Shown piece by piece: positions 1 to 6,072 of a DNA stretch of 44,665 nucleotides. The stretch comes from Candidatus Levyibacteriota bacterium (GTDB taxonomy: Bacteria; Patescibacteriota; Microgenomatia; Levybacterales; UBA12049). The notes under the pieces are model-generated. The model was not told the DNA's origin, made no database searches, and was given only the letters and a program-made list of their open reading frames with translations. Where the stretch lies: contig JACQKQ010000034.1 in assembly GCA_016204465.1 (NCBI GenBank), positions 1-44,665 on the forward strand, read 5' to 3'. The translations under genes were made by a program, and so were the position numbers. How positions within the stretch are numbered: the first letter of the stretch is position 1; each line of letters opens with the position of its first letter.

Positions 1-932
1 CCGTTATAAGAGATATTCATGTTTTATTGATTAAAAAACTGGTTAGTGTAACAGGAAAGGCTAGAGCTACAATATATTTTTCCAAAGTTCAAAACCCGCT
101 TCTTCGCGAGTTTAACCTTGAAAGATATTTCGCCGATGATCCAGACAATAGAATTGGTGCCAGAAAATCATTTGATTTTGAGATATTTAAAAACTTGCAT
201 GATTTATTGACGCCGGAAGAAATAAACACCTTAGAGAAAGTGGCACTAAGTTTTAGAGAACAGACGATGAAACTAAGTCCTGACCTTTTGAAAAGGGAAT
301 TAGAAAGGTTTGTCATTGAATTGTCTTGGAAATCATCCAAAATTGAGGGCAATACTTACACGCTTTTAGAAACAGAGTCTTTAATTAAGGAACAAAAAGA
401 AGCAGCTGGTAAGAGTAAAGATGAGGCAATGATGATTCTTAATCACAAAGCAGCTTTTGAAGAAATACTAAAAGCAAAAAATGATTTTAAAACTATTTCT
501 GTTTCAGGAATTAATCAGCTGCACAATATTTTAACTAAAGGGTTGGGGATTTCCTCTGGTATCAGAAAACAAGCAGTGGGAATTACCGGAACAACTTATC
601 ATCCTCTTGATAATGAACATCAGACAAAAGAGGTTTTTGAAAAAATGATTAATGCTGTAAATAGGAGTAAAAGCCCTTTTGAAAAAGCGCTGATTGTTCA
701 TTTTATGATTCCTTATATTCAACCATATACTGATGGTAACAAAAGAACTGCCAGAATGCTGACTAATGCGATTTTATTAGCCTACGATTTATATCCACTT
801 TCATACCGCAGCGTTGACGAAGATGAATTTAAAAAAGCTTTAATTTTGTTTTACGAGCAGGAAAGTATTTATGAAATCAAAAAGTTGTTTATAGAACAGA
901 TTAAATTTGCCAACGAGACTTATTTTAGATAA
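1..932 (+). CDS. Fic family protein with N-terminal winged-HTH remnant (5' end lies outside the window)
   Basis: Fic-like motif QPYTDGNKRTARM and SWKSSKIEGNT. The frame stays open back to base 3 (VIRDIHVLLIKKLVSVTGKARATIY, wHTH-like), so the TTG at 27 is probably not the true start. Confidence 0.85.
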   Translation, partial: VIRDIHVLLIKKLVSVTGKARATIYFSKVQNPLLREFNLERYFADDPDNRIGARKSFDFEIFKNLHDLLTPEEINTLEKVALSFREQTMKLSPDLLKRELERFVIELSWKSSKIEGNTYTLLETESLIKEQKEAAGKSKDEAMMILNHKAAFEEILKAKNDFKTISVSGINQLHNILTKGLGISSGIRKQAVGITGTTYHPLDNEHQTKEVFEKMINAVNRSKSPFEKALIVHFMIPYIQPYTDGNKRTARMLTNAILLAYDLYPLSYRSVDEDEFKKALILFYEQESIYEIKKLFIEQIKFANETYFR

Positions 933-941
933 TTTATCTGT

Positions 942-990
942 GGTTATATTAGAGTTACGATTATCGAGCTGAATTTGTCTTAATCTGACC
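942..990. repeat. att-like site A (49 bp, imperfect terminal inverted repeats)
   Basis: ggttatattagagttacgattatcgagctgaatttgtcttaatctgacc matches 3761-3809 at 35/49 positions without gaps. Its ends (ggttatattag and the reverse complement ggtcagattaa) are inverted. Confidence 0.7.
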
Positions 991-1015
991 AGTGAATTAA
1001 CAAATATTATCGATT

Positions 1016-1885
1016 ATGACTAAACCGGAAGTAATAGCTAAGCTTCAAGAATTGGCAAAAAAATTAGGAACAGATACCTTAAAGCAGGAAGATATTAGAA
1101 AAGCTGGATTTATTTACCAAGTAATGTTGCATTTTGGTGGGAAAATTAAACCAGCGCTCTTAGCAGCAGGACTTAAACCGAGTCGTCTTGGAGAGGCAAT
1201 GTCCACAACTGAGGAGGAATTACTTCAACATATCCGATACCTTCAAAAAAAACTTAGAAGACCTCCAGTAATAATAGATTTAAGACGAGAAGGTAAGTTC
1301 TCAGATAAAATTTATGAAACTAGATTTGGGAGTTTCCCTGAGGCACGAGCTATTGCTTTAGGAGGGACTCCACCTACTCAATCAAAAAGAACTCAAAAAC
1401 CAGGAGATTCAGATAATATAGGTGATCATTTCAATTATATTGGGAAGGCAGGAGAAATGTATATAATTTCAGAGTTACTTTACCAAGATTATAATGCAAA
1501 TCTAGCCTTGGTTGATACCGGAGTAGATGTAATAGCAACAAAAAATGATAAAACATTCTATTTCCAAGTCAAAAATGTTTCATTCAAGAATACAAATATC
1601 AGAACAGTCCCTATTACCAAAAGCTCATTTATTAATAACCAAAGAGGTAATATGTACTATATGTTCGTCCTTCAGATGGAAAATGAAAAGAAAGTTCTAA
1701 TTGTACCGTATCAAAACATTCATCAATATATTCAAAAGGAAATTATCCAGTTCGATGAACAAAAAAGACAATTTAACATAACTATTTCTATTGCAGATAA
1801 CACATTTAAAATTCACTCTGCTTCAAATACCCAGCGAGACGAAGATGTGAAGCACATGGTTGAAGACTGGAAAGTTATTGCTTAA
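1016..1885 (+). CDS. Homing-endonuclease-associated repeat domain fused to a PD-(D/E)XK nuclease
   Basis: Two N-terminal repeats (e.g. EELLQHIRYLQKKLRRPP...YETRFGSFPEARAIA). C-terminal GKAGE...DTGVDVIA...YFQVK nuclease motif. Confidence 0.65.
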   Translation: MTKPEVIAKLQELAKKLGTDTLKQEDIRKAGFIYQVMLHFGGKIKPALLAAGLKPSRLGEAMSTTEEELLQHIRYLQKKLRRPPVIIDLRREGKFSDKIYETRFGSFPEARAIALGGTPPTQSKRTQKPGDSDNIGDHFNYIGKAGEMYIISELLYQDYNANLALVDTGVDVIATKNDKTFYFQVKNVSFKNTNIRTVPITKSSFINNQRGNMYYMFVLQMENEKKVLIVPYQNIHQYIQKEIIQFDEQKRQFNITISIADNTFKIHSASNTQRDEDVKHMVEDWKVIA

Positions 1886-1888
1886 CTT

Positions 1889-1902
1889 TCTTAATCTGAC
1901 CA
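1889..1902. repeat. Half-site B, a 14-bp direct repeat of the right arm of site A
   Basis: tcttaatctgacca is identical at 978-991 and 1889-1902, bracketing the nuclease gene. Confidence 0.65.
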
Positions 1903-1934
1903 AGTTATTCTCCGCCCAGAAGGAGGTGAACAGA

Positions 1935-2846
1935 ATGAAAAATATAAAGATTCAAAGACATCTGTTAGTTCTCATCATATTGATCGGATTAATGTTTTGT
2001 TCTTCAAAAGGTGTTAAGGCAGCAGAATGTAGCACTTTGACGACTTGCGGAAGTACTTGCTCGTATGGAGGAGTTACTTATAATACTGTCATAATCGACA
2101 GCCAATGTTGGTTTAGAGAGAATCTCAATGTTGGGGCAATGATTACAAATTTAGAAATTCCTGATAATACAGCTCCAACTCTCAATGATCCAAACACTGT
2201 TTCAAAATGGTGCTATAATGATAATCCGATTTACTGTAATCAAGAAGGAGGATTATATACTTGGGCTGAAACCAACGCTTTGTCTAATTCTTGTAACTTA
2301 AATTCCTGCAGTGTCCCAACTCCCAATCAGGGTATTTGTCCCATCGGTTGGCACATTCCAACTGATGCCGAATTTTATACGCTGGAAAATTATTTAACAT
2401 CACCAGGGTAGACGTGTGATGCGACAAGAGATGGTTGGGGTTGCTCTGGTGCCGGAATCAAACTCAGACTGGGTGGAATCTCCGGTTTCGATGCGATAAG
2501 CGCCGGTAATCATGAAACGAATGGAAATCTCAGCTTTTTCGACAAGCGTGAGCCATCCATACACTTTTGGTCATCTTCCCCTTGCCTTGTTTGCGCTAAT
2601 TGGGGTCACGCGTATGGTCGCAGCTTGATAGGTTGGGGTGATAACCCCTTTGTTGCCCGTGGTTGGAGTCATATGGCGCATGGTATGTCTGTTCGGTGTT
2701 TATCTGACACTGCCGTCATTGGTCCTCCGACAAATAAGAACCAGTGTAAAAATAATGGCTGGCAGATATTTAATAATCCAACTTTTAAGAATCAGGGAGA
2801 TTGTGTCAGTTACGTCCAAAGTAGTCCGAATGCGATAGGCAACTAG
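1935..2846 (+). pseudogene. Secreted FISUMP (Fibrobacter succinogenes major paralogous) domain protein interrupted by one in-frame TAG at 2409-2411
   Basis: RBS aggaggtg at 1921, ATG at 1935, then a signal peptide. Motifs QCWFRENLNVG, GGLYTWAE and GICPIGWHIPTDAEF precede the TAG. The same frame continues TCDATRDGWGCSGAGIKL...FWSSS...GMSVRCL to the stop at 2846. Confidence 0.8.
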
Positions 2847-2927
2847 ACTAAATAGTAAGTTGGTTTATAGGCAACAACCCATCTTTTACGGCGGGCTGTT
2901 TGTTTAATTTTGTTTAATGATGAAGAT

Positions 2928-3065
2928 TTAAATCGTAGCGGCATGAGTGAGTATCCTGATCTGATTTAATCTTTCTCTCGCTTGCTCAGACGACACTGGA
3001 TTCTGAAAAGCCTTTATAATTGAATTCAAACCATCAGATCGATTAAAACTAGGATTACGGAGCAC
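2928..3065 (-). other. 45-codon minus-strand tail reading out of att-like site C
   Basis: Translates VLRNPSFNRSDGLNSIIKAFQNPVSSEQARERLNQIRILTHAATI*, which aligns without gaps to the tail at 3656-3790. Confidence 0.55.
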
Positions 3066-3115
3066 TTCGACTAGTCACGACAGTGAGTGAAATCGGATTG
3101 CTCAGTGTTATAACC
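3036..3115. repeat. att-like site C, interrupted by a ~40 bp REP-like hairpin insert
   Basis: tcgattaaaactaggattacggag (3039-3062) matches 4483-4506 at 23/24. Both copies then reach agtgttataa (3104-3113 and 4510-4519). Confidence 0.7.
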
Positions 3116-3159
3116 AGCTGGCACTTAATATACCTAAAATTTGATATAGTTAACTAAGT

Positions 3160-3648
3160 ATGAATACTGATTTAACACCCGAAGAAAAAAAGTTGGTTGA
3201 GTATTCAAAGGATGCTGTTGTTAAATACAATAAAATCCGTCATGCAAATGGAGGTATAGACACTCTGTATTCGTTTTTATTGTCAGATAGCGGGAAGATT
3301 CATGATGGAGCAAGTTATGAGCCGAATATTGCTCATGCTTCAGTTTGTGGGGAAAGATGCGCAATTGCGAATATGGTATTGCAGGAATCATATAAAGCCA
3401 AGATTAAAAGCATTGTTGTGGCGGATCCAGTTCCCGAAGTTCAAGAAAATAGAACTCCACCATGCGGAACTTGTCGTCATCTTATTTGGACTCATGGGAC
3501 ACCTGAAACAACTGTTATCTTAATGCAATATGTTCAAGGAAAAGATGGTTGGACTTTCTCAAAAATAGAGAAATATACGGCTAAAGATTTTTATCCGCTT
3601 CCGTACGAACCTAAAGAAGGACTTTGGGATAATTTCCAACGTAAGTAG
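3160..3648 (+). CDS. Cytidine deaminase family protein
   Basis: Zn-binding motifs VCGERCAI and PPCGTCR. Confidence 0.8.
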   Translation: MNTDLTPEEKKLVEYSKDAVVKYNKIRHANGGIDTLYSFLLSDSGKIHDGASYEPNIAHASVCGERCAIANMVLQESYKAKIKSIVVADPVPEVQENRTPPCGTCRHLIWTHGTPETTVILMQYVQGKDGWTFSKIEKYTAKDFYPLPYEPKEGLWDNFQRK

Positions 3649-3655
3649 TAGATTT

Positions 3656-3790
3656 TTAGATAGCAAGAGCTAGGGATGGTTTTACTCTTTCGATACCTTC
3701 TCTTATTTGAGCAACCAGCCTGCAATCTTCGAATGTCTTGATTAAACAAGCTAATTGACTGGTTATATTAACATTACGATCCTCGAGCCA
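3656..3790 (-). other. 44-codon startless minus-strand tail reading out of att-like site D
   Basis: Translates WLEDRNVNITSQLACLIKTFEDCRLVAQIREGIERVKPSLALAI*. There is an in-frame TAA just upstream and no start codon. Confidence 0.55.
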
Positions 3791-3809
3791 AATAGTTCTT
3801 ACTCGAACT
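3761..3809. repeat. att-like site D (49 bp)
   Basis: ggttatattaacattacgatcctcgagccaaatagttcttactcgaact matches site A at 35/49. The reverse complement of its right arm (agttcgagtaa) matches the left arm of site E (agttcgattaa) at 10/11. Confidence 0.7.
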
Positions 3810-3837
3810 TAACGTCATTTTAGATGCATTTTATGTA

Positions 3838-3866
3838 TTGACAAAGTATGTACAAGTTTATATAAT
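3838..3866 (+). promoter_or_regulatory. Consensus sigma70 promoter for the toxin-antitoxin operon (leaderless)
   Basis: TTGACA (3838-3843), 17 nt spacer, TATAAT (3861-3866). The GTG start follows 6 nt later. Confidence 0.8.
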
Positions 3867-3872
3867 ATATTT

Positions 3873-4172
3873 GTGCAATATAAAGGTTACAGAATTGAGT
3901 TTTCTGAAGAGAAGAATTTATTACTAAAGGAAACAAGAGAACTATGTTTTGAAGATGCTTTAAAAGCAATTGAAGAAAAGAAAATTTTGGATGACCTTAA
4001 GTCTAGTAGCAAAAAGTATCCTCATCAAAGAATATTAGTAATAAAAAGAGAAGAATATACTTATGCTGTGCCCTATGTGATAGACAAAAAAAGGAAAGTA
4101 ATTTTTCTTAAAACAGTCTACCCAAGTAGGGTTTTGACTGATAAATATCTGAAAGGAGGTGGGAAAATTTGA
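3873..4172 (+). CDS. BrnT-like type II toxin
   Basis: IEFSEEKNLLLKETRELCFED ... YPHQRILV ... YAVPYV ... FLKTVYPSR. Overlaps the downstream antitoxin by 4 nt. Confidence 0.75.
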   Translation: MQYKGYRIEFSEEKNLLLKETRELCFEDALKAIEEKKILDDLKSSSKKYPHQRILVIKREEYTYAVPYVIDKKRKVIFLKTVYPSRVLTDKYLKGGGKI

Positions 4173-4453
4173 AAGTAATACTTGATAAATATGAGAAAGA
4201 TTTAGAAGCTGCCCTAGAAAAGGGTGAATTTGTTAATGCGCCTAATTTAGAAGATACTAAACAAATGTTTCAGGAAGCAGCTAGAAACTTTAGGCAGTTA
4301 CAAGAAACAAAGAGTATTACCTTAAGGGTTAATAGAGAGGATCTTATTAAAGTTAAATCTAAAGCCAAGAGAAATGGTATAGCTTACCAAACCTTGATAA
4401 GCTTGTTAATTCGTCAATATATAAAAGGGGAGAAAGAAGTAATTTTAGATTGA
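4169..4453 (+). CDS. BrnA/CopG-like (ribbon-helix-helix) antitoxin
   Basis: C-terminal KSITLRVNREDLIKVKSKAKRNGIAYQTLISLLIRQY. RBS ggaggt upstream. Confidence 0.75.
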   Translation: MKVILDKYEKDLEAALEKGEFVNAPNLEDTKQMFQEAARNFRQLQETKSITLRVNREDLIKVKSKAKRNGIAYQTLISLLIRQYIKGEKEVILD

Positions 4454-4479
4454 GAAGATAAGTTCAAATTGATACTTTA

Positions 4480-4519
4480 AGTTCGATTAAAACTAGGAAT
4501 ACGGAGTCAAGTGTTATAA
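4480..4519. repeat. att-like site E (right boundary of the cargo array)
   Basis: agttcgattaaaactaggaatacggagtcaagtgttataa is near-identical to site C. Confidence 0.7.
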
Positions 4520-4524
4520 TGAGT

Positions 4525-4686
4525 AAGCGGCTATCCGAGGGTTTTTAACCCTCGGCTGCAAAGCTCTTGCAACAGGTCTGTAAAGAGTAGTAGACTTCAA
4601 TCGTGAAAGGATTGAAGTCTACGGCACAAACAAAGTACGATTTGAGATATCACTTTGTCTTTGTACCAAGGTATCGCAAGCGAGTA
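4525..4686 (+). mobile_element. tnpA: Truncated IS200/IS605 element: left-end hairpin plus the first ~28 codons of the Y1 transposase TnpA
   Basis: Perfect hairpin ccgagggtt-ttt-aaccctcgg at 4535-4555. KSTAQTKYDLRYHFVFVPRYRKRV is the typical TnpA N-terminus, and similarity is lost after it. Confidence 0.75.
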
Positions 4687-5006
4687 CCGAGGAGAAAAAT
4701 TTTAACAATTGTTGTGAACCTTGTTAATTTGAAAAATGCAAGGCTATCAGAGAGTAAATACAGTATTGCAATAGTCGAAGAAAAGATAAAGTAGTACGGC
4801 TCGTGCAAGTAGCCCCAGCCGAAGATATTGCTGATGAAAAAAATATAAATAAACGCAATGGCAATTGGCGTATCGAGCATCTAATCCATTATATCATCTG
4901 CTATTTACCGGCTTTGTTCCAGAGCAACCACTTCTTTTACCATAGGCAACATAGTAGCACAGTATGTTTTTTCTGCCAAGAGAGAAACCTCTGCTATACT
5001 AGTGGT

Positions 5007-5792
5007 ATGGAGGAATATCTTGATTTTGCCGTTTCCCTTGCGCTAAAGGCTGGGGAAATGATAAGAACTGATTTTCGAAAAGCCATTGTCCGCGAGTGGA
5101 AAGCCGACGAAACGCCGATTACAACGACTGATCGTAAGATAAACCAAATGGTAATTGAGCAGGTGGCAAAGCGTTATCCGACATACGCCATTTTGGCAGA
5201 GGAGGGCAGCAGGCCAAAGGAGAGCGAGTATGCCTGGGTGTGCGACCCAATTGATGGTACGGTGCCATTTTCCAACAAGTACCCAACGTCTGTATTTGCC
5301 CTTGCGCTTACCAAGAATGGAGAAAGCATGCTCGGTGTTATCTACGATCCATATATGGATCGGTTGCTCACAGCAGTAAAAGGCCAAGGCGCGTACTGCA
5401 ATAAAGAGCGCATTCATGTTTCAGAGTCAGATGAATTCAACAAAACGACAATTGATGTTGAAGCAGCTAGGGAGCCATTTTTACACGATATAAGTAAGCT
5501 ATATGAGCTGTTGCTGAAGAAAAATAGCGTTGCTATATCACTTCGTTCCGTTTCGTATGGGGGAATGCTTGTTGGCATAGGACAAATAGCTGCAGTTGTT
5601 GGAGCGCCACATTCGCCATGGGATGGCGCAGCGTCAAAGGTTATTGTTGAAGAAGCTTTAGGAAAAGTAACAGATTTATTCGGAAACAATCAGCGATATG
5701 ATCGAGAACTAAAAGGTATTATTATAAGTAATAGCTGTATACACGATGCTATAATCAAACTTGTTAGACCCCTTCTTGAAAAAAAGGTGTGA
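5007..5792 (+). CDS. Inositol monophosphatase family protein
   Basis: ILAEE, WVCDPIDGT and PWDGAA motifs. Start reassigned to the ATG at 5007, just after an extended -10 TGcTATACT. Confidence 0.9.
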   Translation: MEEYLDFAVSLALKAGEMIRTDFRKAIVREWKADETPITTTDRKINQMVIEQVAKRYPTYAILAEEGSRPKESEYAWVCDPIDGTVPFSNKYPTSVFALALTKNGESMLGVIYDPYMDRLLTAVKGQGAYCNKERIHVSESDEFNKTTIDVEAAREPFLHDISKLYELLLKKNSVAISLRSVSYGGMLVGIGQIAAVVGAPHSPWDGAASKVIVEEALGKVTDLFGNNQRYDRELKGIIISNSCIHDAIIKLVRPLLEKKV

Positions 5793-5805
5793 TATAATAC
5801 AAGCC

Positions 5806-6072
5806 ATGGCGACTAAAAAGAAAAAAACCATTGAACAGACGTTTTATGTTTCGGGCGAAAAGCTCATCGATAAAGTGAAAGAACTTGTCAGAGAGGGAAA
5901 CGTTCGCCGAATTATTATTAAAGACAAAAATGGTAAGGTGCTTGTTGAATTCCCTCTTACTTTTGGTGTTGTCGGTGCAGTGTTAGCTCCAGTTTTAGCC
6001 GCCGTTGGCGCGATTGCCGCGCTTGTTACCGAGTGCTCCATTACCGTGCAGCGCGAAGAGGAAAATATATAG
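5806..6072 (+). CDS. DUF4342 family protein
   Basis: LIDKVKELVREGNVRRIIIK...EFPLTFGVVGA signature. ATG at 5806. Confidence 0.8.
   Translation: MATKKKKTIEQTFYVSGEKLIDKVKELVREGNVRRIIIKDKNGKVLVEFPLTFGVVGAVLAPVLAAVGAIAALVTECSITVQREEENI

Follow-up and report, generated by a model that had tools for sequence, protein, structure and literature searches.

The mobile system that appears closest in architecture to the locus studied here is the staphylococcal cassette chromosome (SCC) composite island at rlmH/orfX. One such composite consists of three tandem SCC elements and four integration site sequence (ISS) repeats, with one pseudo-SCC element that has no recombinase genes (bioRxiv 10.1101/336396). 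Here, we present an analysis of an array of small gene cassettes at the left end of a 44,665-nucleotide stretch of DNA from Candidatus Levyibacteriota bacterium (assembly GCA_016204465.1, contig JACQKQ010000034.1, positions 1 to 44,665; hereafter the window), an uncultivated groundwater bacterium of the candidate phyla radiation (CPR). The array holds five co-oriented cargo units, namely a fic gene, a nuclease-like gene, a FISUMP gene, a deaminase gene and a toxin-antitoxin (TA)-like module, with short related sites, A to E, at the unit boundaries. These sites are very probably pieces of CPR large serine recombinase (LSR) genes that carry the attP site, and by analogy the most suitable reading of the array is a stack of cassettes without recombinases, comparable to SCC. 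Contig C14 begins at the first base of the window and has no sequence further left; it belongs to an 881-kb assembly of 50 contigs that is 88.8% complete. Related genomes, loci, proteins and contigs are referred to below by G, L, P and C numbers.

The likeness to SCC islands lies in LSRs at one conserved chromosomal site, in tandem units split by direct site repeats and in the presence of units without a recombinase: none of the five units in the window has an LSR, and the arrays of relatives lie at a tRNA-Asn gene. Unlike in SCC islands, where Ccr-family recombinases act at the 3' end of rlmH, the target is the 3' end of tRNA-Asn, the units measure ~0.7-1.2 kb (one or two genes each) instead of 10-60 kb, the host is a CPR bacterium, and attP lies inside the recombinase open reading frame (ORF), so that each event leaves a tail of ~45 codons. 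In archaeal virus and plasmid integrases of the Sulfolobus spindle-shaped virus (SSV) type, attP is likewise situated inside the integrase gene, and integration splits int at a tRNA gene; these archaeal enzymes are tyrosine recombinases, and the split falls near the N-terminus of int. The present locus has in common with them attP in a recombinase ORF, a tRNA 3' target and int fragments at both borders, but the enzyme is a serine recombinase (PF00239, PF07508) and only the C-terminal ~45 residues are displaced. For mycobacterial phages with integration-dependent immunity, one account places attP within a gene whose 3' remnant is left at attR, and proposes that tandem Mycobacterium prophages form by exchange between an incoming attP and a resident attR (PMC9934374). 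Unlike here, the split gene of those phages encodes a repressor, the integrase is a tyrosine enzyme and the units are whole prophages. Integrons resemble the array in having small, co-oriented, mostly single-gene cassettes that each end in a recombination site, and TA and Fic-type cargo is typical of integrons. Unlike an integron, the array has no attC hairpins and no adjoining IntI, its sites being double-strand LSR att sites that come from a gene, and neither a resident integrase nor a common promoter was identified for it. In the full-text literature, with subscription journals and supplements outside the scope of the search, we found neither a serine recombinase with attP in its own gene nor such a case in CPR bacteria or Patescibacteria.

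All five sites are present where an initial annotation, made from the nucleotide sequence alone, had placed them, and the main identities that it had given were borne out. Sites A (942-990) and D (3761-3809) match at 35 of 49 positions without gaps, C (3039-3062) and E (4483-4506) match at 23 of 24, and both pairs also came out of a repeat search, at 76% over 45 nt and at 83% over 40 nt. Across the five intergenic stretches the best match is 36 for a 49-mer and 23 for a 24-mer; the maxima in 100 mononucleotide shuffles were 30 and 18, with none of the shuffles reaching the observed values. The 14-mer of B (1889-1902) repeats positions 978-991 in full (14/14), although this copy overruns the end that had been given for A by one base. 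The 11-bp inverted ends attributed to A and D turned out weaker than described, with terminal dyads pairing at 8/12 positions in A and 7/12 in D. Four 30-mers had been aligned in a common minus-strand register; they share 17-25 of 30 positions (A-D 23/30, C-E 25/30, across types 17-18/30), and the register is a reading frame, that of the LSR gene. The view of the boundary sites as one family of ~49-bp sites needs amending: the sites are real, but they are heterogeneous scars rather than five equivalent 49-bp sites, and the conserved units are longer (C ~2928-3135, D ~3656-3811). Sorted by their P and P' content, A and D have the attP-like form P-P', B has P' alone, C consists of P, an insert and P', and E has P alone, with C and E also carrying the gene tail beside the P half-site. 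The pieces, with C-type and D-type tails told apart, are as follows.

942-971, minus strand: left half of site A, P half-site together with the 10 opening codons (LDNRNSNITT) of a D-type LSR tail, from translation
972-992, minus strand: right half of site A, P' half-site, equal to the codons (L)VRLRQI that immediately precede the tail in LSR genes, from translation
1881-1902, minus strand: site B, P' half-site alone without a tail, overlapping the stop codon of cargo 2, from the 14-base match to A
2928-3065, minus strand: core of site C, C-type LSR tail remnant of 44 codons and a stop, att centre ~3063-3065, from translation
3066-3134, no strand assigned: 53-nt insert, then the K-type P' half-site (3119-3134), from the K motif that follows tRNA-Asn at C33:15055
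3656-3811, minus strand: site D, D-type LSR tail of 43 codons and a stop, with 7 degenerate P' codons (VRVRTIW), from translation
4480-4509, minus strand: site E, C-type P half-site and 9 tail codons (LRIPSFNRT), then a stop, from translation

The identity of these pieces follows from how the copies diverge and from what they match. Pairwise differences at codon positions 1:2:3 amount to 47:22:82 in four C-type copies and 192:108:329 in seven D-type copies, a bias that reads as the mark of divergence in a sequence constrained as protein. In most copies the frame begins immediately behind a stop codon and lacks a start codon, which marks them as fragments and not genes; a small independent minus-strand ORF was ruled out on these grounds. 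A profile of 12 tail copies (A1), searched against longer proteins, gave 83 protein matches, 20 of which are proteins of 526-619 aa with Resolvase (PF00239) and Recombinase (PF07508) domains, most of them also with a zinc-ribbon domain; those with a named source come from Roizmanbacteria, Microgenomates or Patescibacteria. The tail peptide is the extreme C-terminus (last ~45 residues) in all 20 full-length LSRs, and in all 20 the site sequence lies within the 3' coding region; the second half of A and the whole of B correspond to the seven codons (VRLRxIx) immediately before the tail. The membership in an LSR system that had been proposed for the sites is confirmed in this form, as attP-carrying pieces of LSR genes. 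The 3' end of a chromosomal target gene (e.g. purH) had been another candidate for their origin and was dropped on the match to LSRs.

Site A, 49 bp long with imperfect terminal dyads, amounts to 17 successive LSR codons arranged as an imperfect palindrome, in keeping with the ~40-50 bp and the two imperfectly inverted half-sites of LSR att sites. Its att centre lies at ~969-971, in the same register as in the tails of full-length LSRs; the codons of its P' precede the tail in P0055 and P0048, and its P' motif also follows the 3' end of tRNA-Asn in G026, G160 and G041. At the DNA level C (window positions 2952-3072) is 81% identical to G026, its core is 64% identical to residues 490-533 of P0055, and D, with its att centre at ~3786-3790, is 67% identical to residues 480-525 of P0016; the att centre of E is at ~4507-4509. 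The K-type P' runs into the promoter-like leader of the deaminase gene, and the K motif in reverse complement reads ILSANW, as in P0054 ahead of its tail. The K-type leader was at one point taken for the native flank (B') of tRNA-Asn, an assignment that was revised on this match; because the leader reads as LSR codons, the junction between tRNA and K on C33 is probably itself a scar. Exact motif copies occur in the assembly only in the window and at C33:15055, right after tRNA-Asn, and on inspection the half-site motifs recur in P, in P' and in the T-arm of the tRNA.

Sequence comparison further places attP inside the LSR gene and points to tRNA-Asn as its target. Of the ten best matches (60-74% identity) to P0016 (526 residues) across 245 genomes from the order, nine ended at residue 491-492, where the tail starts. 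At the 15 LSR loci scanned, tRNA-Asn(GTT) overlaps the 3' end of the LSR gene on the opposite strand in nine, tRNA-Gln does so in one, and five have none, including one (G104) with an intron-split tRNA-Asn that ARAGORN overlooked. The ORF at L038 passes from LSR codons into antisense tRNA-Asn and stops 10 codons later, and that of the first LSR in G104 runs into antisense tRNA-Asn and stops after 3 codons. Tail-bearing full-length LSR genes in G010 and G083, on the other side, hold P, centre and P' in coding DNA. As the LSR body stops at ~491 into antisense tRNA-Asn and attP lies in coding DNA, integration therefore splits the gene; after integration, the body appears to stay at the tRNA junction and the tail at the distal one. 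Recombinant junctions were found as fusions between LSR and antisense tRNA-Asn, as ends of the deaminase cassette and as contig divergence at site centres. Three further proteins (P0034, P0032 and P0062) are ORFs in which an SDR, DNA methyltransferase or thioredoxin-reductase-like fragment is fused to an LSR tail remnant, and these would be chimeric frames made at such junctions. In P0048, a full-length LSR, the body and P' codons belong to the C-type family and the tail is D-type, a tail swap such as would result if the att sites of two LSR lineages crossed over.

The repeats also recur in relatives, as the initial annotation had anticipated. Intergenic stretches of window positions 1-6000 matched when compared with 40 relatives (e.g. 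3650-3788 at 71-80% in G031, G012 and G039), and BLAST of four spacer regions against the relatives' loci gave clusters of copies in G041, G089, G128, G160, G233 and G026. The tail profile had 76 matches in 54 of the 245 genomes of the order, two of them on a long ORF (G083, G010) and 74 in frames of at most 164 aa; seven matches lie within 15 kb in G041. A tRNA-Asn gene adjoins the arrays in G128, G160, G233, G041 and G215, and in G026, where it is split by a group I intron. The tRNA gene that had been predicted beside the array is found in the present genome at C33:14977-15051, followed by the K motif (C33:15055) and, ~190 nt on, by a second fic copy that reaches the contig end. Two LSR elements stand in tandem in G104 and in G010, with the tRNA-distal LSR at full length, and tandem stacking with an internal intact attP therefore does happen. 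The cargo of these G104 and G010 elements includes a C5 methylase and an AbiEii-type AAA ATPase; of the 10 ORFs scanned in them, none was recognisable as a phage structural gene.

Cassette boundaries at att centres are seen most directly in the deaminase unit, which is 72-95% identical to G041, a genome from another family of the order, from 3119 to ~3790. The homology begins at the first base of the K half-site, ends at the centre of D and drops to background on both sides, and the neighbours of the unit differ between the window and G041. The window was also matched in four groundwater metagenome runs (X1-X4) from one study, as assembled contigs, which cannot show circles. One X4 contig follows A through 971 and then diverges; three contigs (X2, X4) follow D through 3790 and then diverge; 4510, the centre of E, is joined back to 3119 at the K half-site through a single extra letter (X2, X4); and a joint 3786->4689 skips the TA unit and the IS200 remnant to its right (X1, X3; side of 30 letters). 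A fic variant is joined 935->2998. The first four of these kinds of junction place alternative partners at att centres, whereas 935->2998 does not. There is also a loose end at 4514, beside site E. Joints with a side of only 21 letters (881->4383, 3035->4479, 3138->3701 and 3854->4090) were left out, as were runs X5-X20, whose word shares were small.

We propose that a clade of CPR LSRs integrates at the 3' end of tRNA-Asn(GTT), with an attP of ~50 bp that sits within the coding sequence of the LSR itself, ~37-53 codons ahead of the stop. A crossover in the middle of the site would fuse the LSR body to antisense tRNA-Asn and leave the last ~45 codons with the P half-site at the far junction. 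The stack would have been built by serial LSR crossovers at tRNA-Asn, by attP x attB first and by attP x resident hybrid sites later; recombinase bodies may have been lost afterwards, or the cassettes may never have had one, and any mobilisation from here on would depend on an LSR in trans. We consider it likely that the sites are in this way scars of one LSR system and that the array accreted by crossover at tRNA-Asn; the order of events is inferred, as is whether any site still serves as a substrate. The stacking of single-module cassettes by site-specific recombination, put forward in the initial annotation, stands insofar as homology ends at att centres, but deletional decay has been at work too, as in the longer LSR remnants of relatives, and one joint (935->2998) lies off-centre. 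Possible, with more doubt than confidence, is a further step, in which the exchange of the tail for a tRNA-encoded end of 3-10 residues acts as an integration-dependent switch and, together with recombinase-less, promoter-bearing single-gene cassettes that use the same att sites and are mobilised in trans, makes up an integron-like platform by which ultra-small bacteria would capture genes with a serine recombinase.

Several observations weigh against accretion by LSR crossover. No LSR body lies within the window, as had been noted from the start, and the cognate LSR was not found in the 88.8%-complete assembly either; its sole LSR (C11, 522 aa) is of another subfamily and without the tail. 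To our knowledge, canonical LSRs recombine only attP x attB, and tandem stacking calls for attP x attL/attR steps, which are non-standard for them. The joint 935->2998 occurs in all four runs and falls inside the C-type tail, off any att centre, and the population contigs could stem from related strains or organisms. The remnants are ragged, with starts at LSR residues 463-496 and lengths of ~157 aa in G215 and ~160 aa in P0034; together with the off-centre joint, these ragged and longer remnants imply that illegitimate deletion also acts at these loci, and they weaken the sharp outer edge of P' as proof of a site-specific origin. The short remnant form dominates over the longer ones, either because only the functional site is maintained by selection, as would speak for a live platform, or because short forms share ancestry. 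Trimming of P' to ~7-10 codons in most copies has no explanation under LSR accretion, and single genes between a trimmed P' and a tail-plus-P without an LSR body stay unaccounted for. Finally, C33 and C14 have no physical join, and the fic copy on C33 is only 92% identical to the one in the window (4-690). That both contigs end within a fic gene is consistent with an assembly gap caused by a repeat.

Some of the same observations bear on the alternatives. In a live integron-like platform, which differs from past accretion only in present activity, cassettes would still be excised and re-inserted by an LSR in trans. Site A does have its two half-sites undamaged across 49 bp, the end of P' shifts by only a few bases among the compared copies, suggesting selection on the site, and single co-oriented genes have a common promoter-like leader; moreover, one cassette has different neighbours in two families, and contigs of the source community show other partners at att centres, the back-joint 4510->3119 among them. 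This back-joint may, however, reflect the cassette order of another strain and not a circle, FISUMP holds a stop codon, B, C and E are incomplete or interrupted, the P' of D is degenerate, and we know of no attP x attP exchange by canonical LSRs. With the cognate LSR missing from the assembly as well, a platform active today seems rather unlikely to us, and the initial description of the array as a functional analogue of an integron goes further than the data. A mosaic made by homologous recombination, with tRNA-Asn, leaders and LSR tails serving as RecA-type homology arms after one or a few ancient integrations and no later site-specific events, would account for the conserved blocks of 40-190 nt common to several genomes, for the conservation of the K leader past the half-site up to the cargo ATG and for the breakpoint 935->2998 off any att centre. 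We judge it improbable: at 70-82% identity between genomes the tails are a poor substrate for homologous exchange, the right-hand homology of the deaminase unit halts at the att centre though the adjacent half-sites are also related, and a central crossover would account for the junctions at which a C-type tail meets a D-family P' (C, L033, back-joint).

The resemblance of a co-oriented array of small cassettes with TA and Fic genes to a chromosomal integron raises the question of a classical integron or a cluster of attC sites lacking integron-integrases (CALIN), with attC sites recombined as folded single strands by the tyrosine recombinase IntI. Ten folds (five sites, both strands) gave z-scores of -0.60 to +0.68 and no hairpin; since no site folds better than shuffled sequence, the sites are not attC-like, in agreement with the initial annotation. 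The only tyrosine recombinases (314 and 293 aa; PF00589) are encoded on C35 and C39, away from the array, and the sites derive from the coding sequence of a serine recombinase, so that a classical integron has next to no probability left. Scarcely more credible are purely regulatory repeats, i.e. promoters or operators ahead of genes with no recombination history. Extended -10-like motifs are visible by eye ~40 nt before start codons, in the K leader and at the ends of sites C and E, yet a regulatory origin leaves the codon-periodic divergence, the identity with the LSR C-terminus, the linkage to tRNA-Asn and the homology breaks at att centres unexplained. A promoter role of the leaders can coexist with accretion by LSR crossover.

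How CPR bacteria, with their tiny genomes, acquire accessory genes is poorly understood. In this regard, the locus type would represent a dedicated tRNA-Asn hot spot where defence- and toxin-type genes gather as small modules, where an LSR with embedded attP is remodelled by integration and where recombinase-less cassettes have the size of integron cassettes. The system can also supply natural LSR-attP-attB triplets with a tRNA target, readable straight from genomes.

The cargo genes and the right border of the array are as follows.

3-932, plus strand: cargo 1, Fic/DOC-family gene, cut by the contig start (Pfam PF02661, E 3.4e-15)
1016-1885, plus strand: cargo 2, 289-aa protein with a homing-endonuclease-associated repeat (Pfam PF18780, E 1.5e-13)
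1935-2846, plus strand: cargo 3, Fib_succ_major (FISUMP) gene with an in-frame TAG (Pfam PF09603, E 5.4e-16, first half)
3160-3648, plus strand: cargo 4, cytidine/deoxycytidylate deaminase-like gene (Pfam PF00383, E 1.3e-5)
3873-4453, plus strand: cargo 5, two-gene TA-like module of a 99-aa protein (no Pfam match) and a 94-aa CopG/BrnA-type antitoxin (Pfam PF12441, E 3e-6)
4535-4688, plus strand: right border, a pair of strong hairpins followed by the opening ~28 codons of an IS200-type TnpA (PF01797, E 0.0043, under the curated cut-off)

By inspection, a close homologue of cargo 2 is the first gene of the G041 array, directly after tRNA-Asn and a P' half-site. The TAG in FISUMP lies at 2409-2411 and is followed by 144 further codons of open frame; it is present in the population and not an assembly error, because X1 and X3 contigs over 1741-3757 show no other letter. 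The DNA of cargo 5 is 74% identical to G023, where the module (L005) is bordered by a different direct repeat of ~40 nt (~1330-1390 and ~2230-2290) and no C- or D-type tails are recognisable. The hairpins at the right border have a fold z-score of -5.5, and homology at the TnpA remnant (4535-4794 region) breaks at 4687/4688; past 4687, we read the loose ends of metagenome contigs as resembling an intact TnpA transposase.

Additional observations concern the LSR and tRNA loci. The LSR on C11, the sole serine recombinase of the genome, is located at G000:C11:12836-14404 (L003 1489-3057) with no tRNA within 1.4 kb on either side; it was considered as the cognate enzyme and rejected, the tblastn match being weak (E 0.21) and ~60 residues before the C-terminus, with a different protein end. 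A related LSR at L050 (G024:C1:910510-914994), 41% identical to P0016, overlaps tRNA-Gln(CTG) with its 3' end. In G160 (L032 9263-9390), a C-type tail stands in frame after the purH stop, and the array there therefore abuts a core gene. An Rfam scan of window positions 1-6000 gave no match at E up to 0.1. The group I intron splits tRNA-Asn in the anticodon loop at L019 5112-5328 (G026; Rfam RF00028, E 1.2e-15) and at L070 ~900-1250 (G104), and ARAGORN misses both split tRNAs. The tRNA-Asn halves are duplicated in G160, with a hairpin insert of ~40 nt in the D-loop region, and a small GIY-YIG-type ORF adjoins tRNA-Asn at L032 10780-11330 (G160) as well as at L031, L034 and L035.

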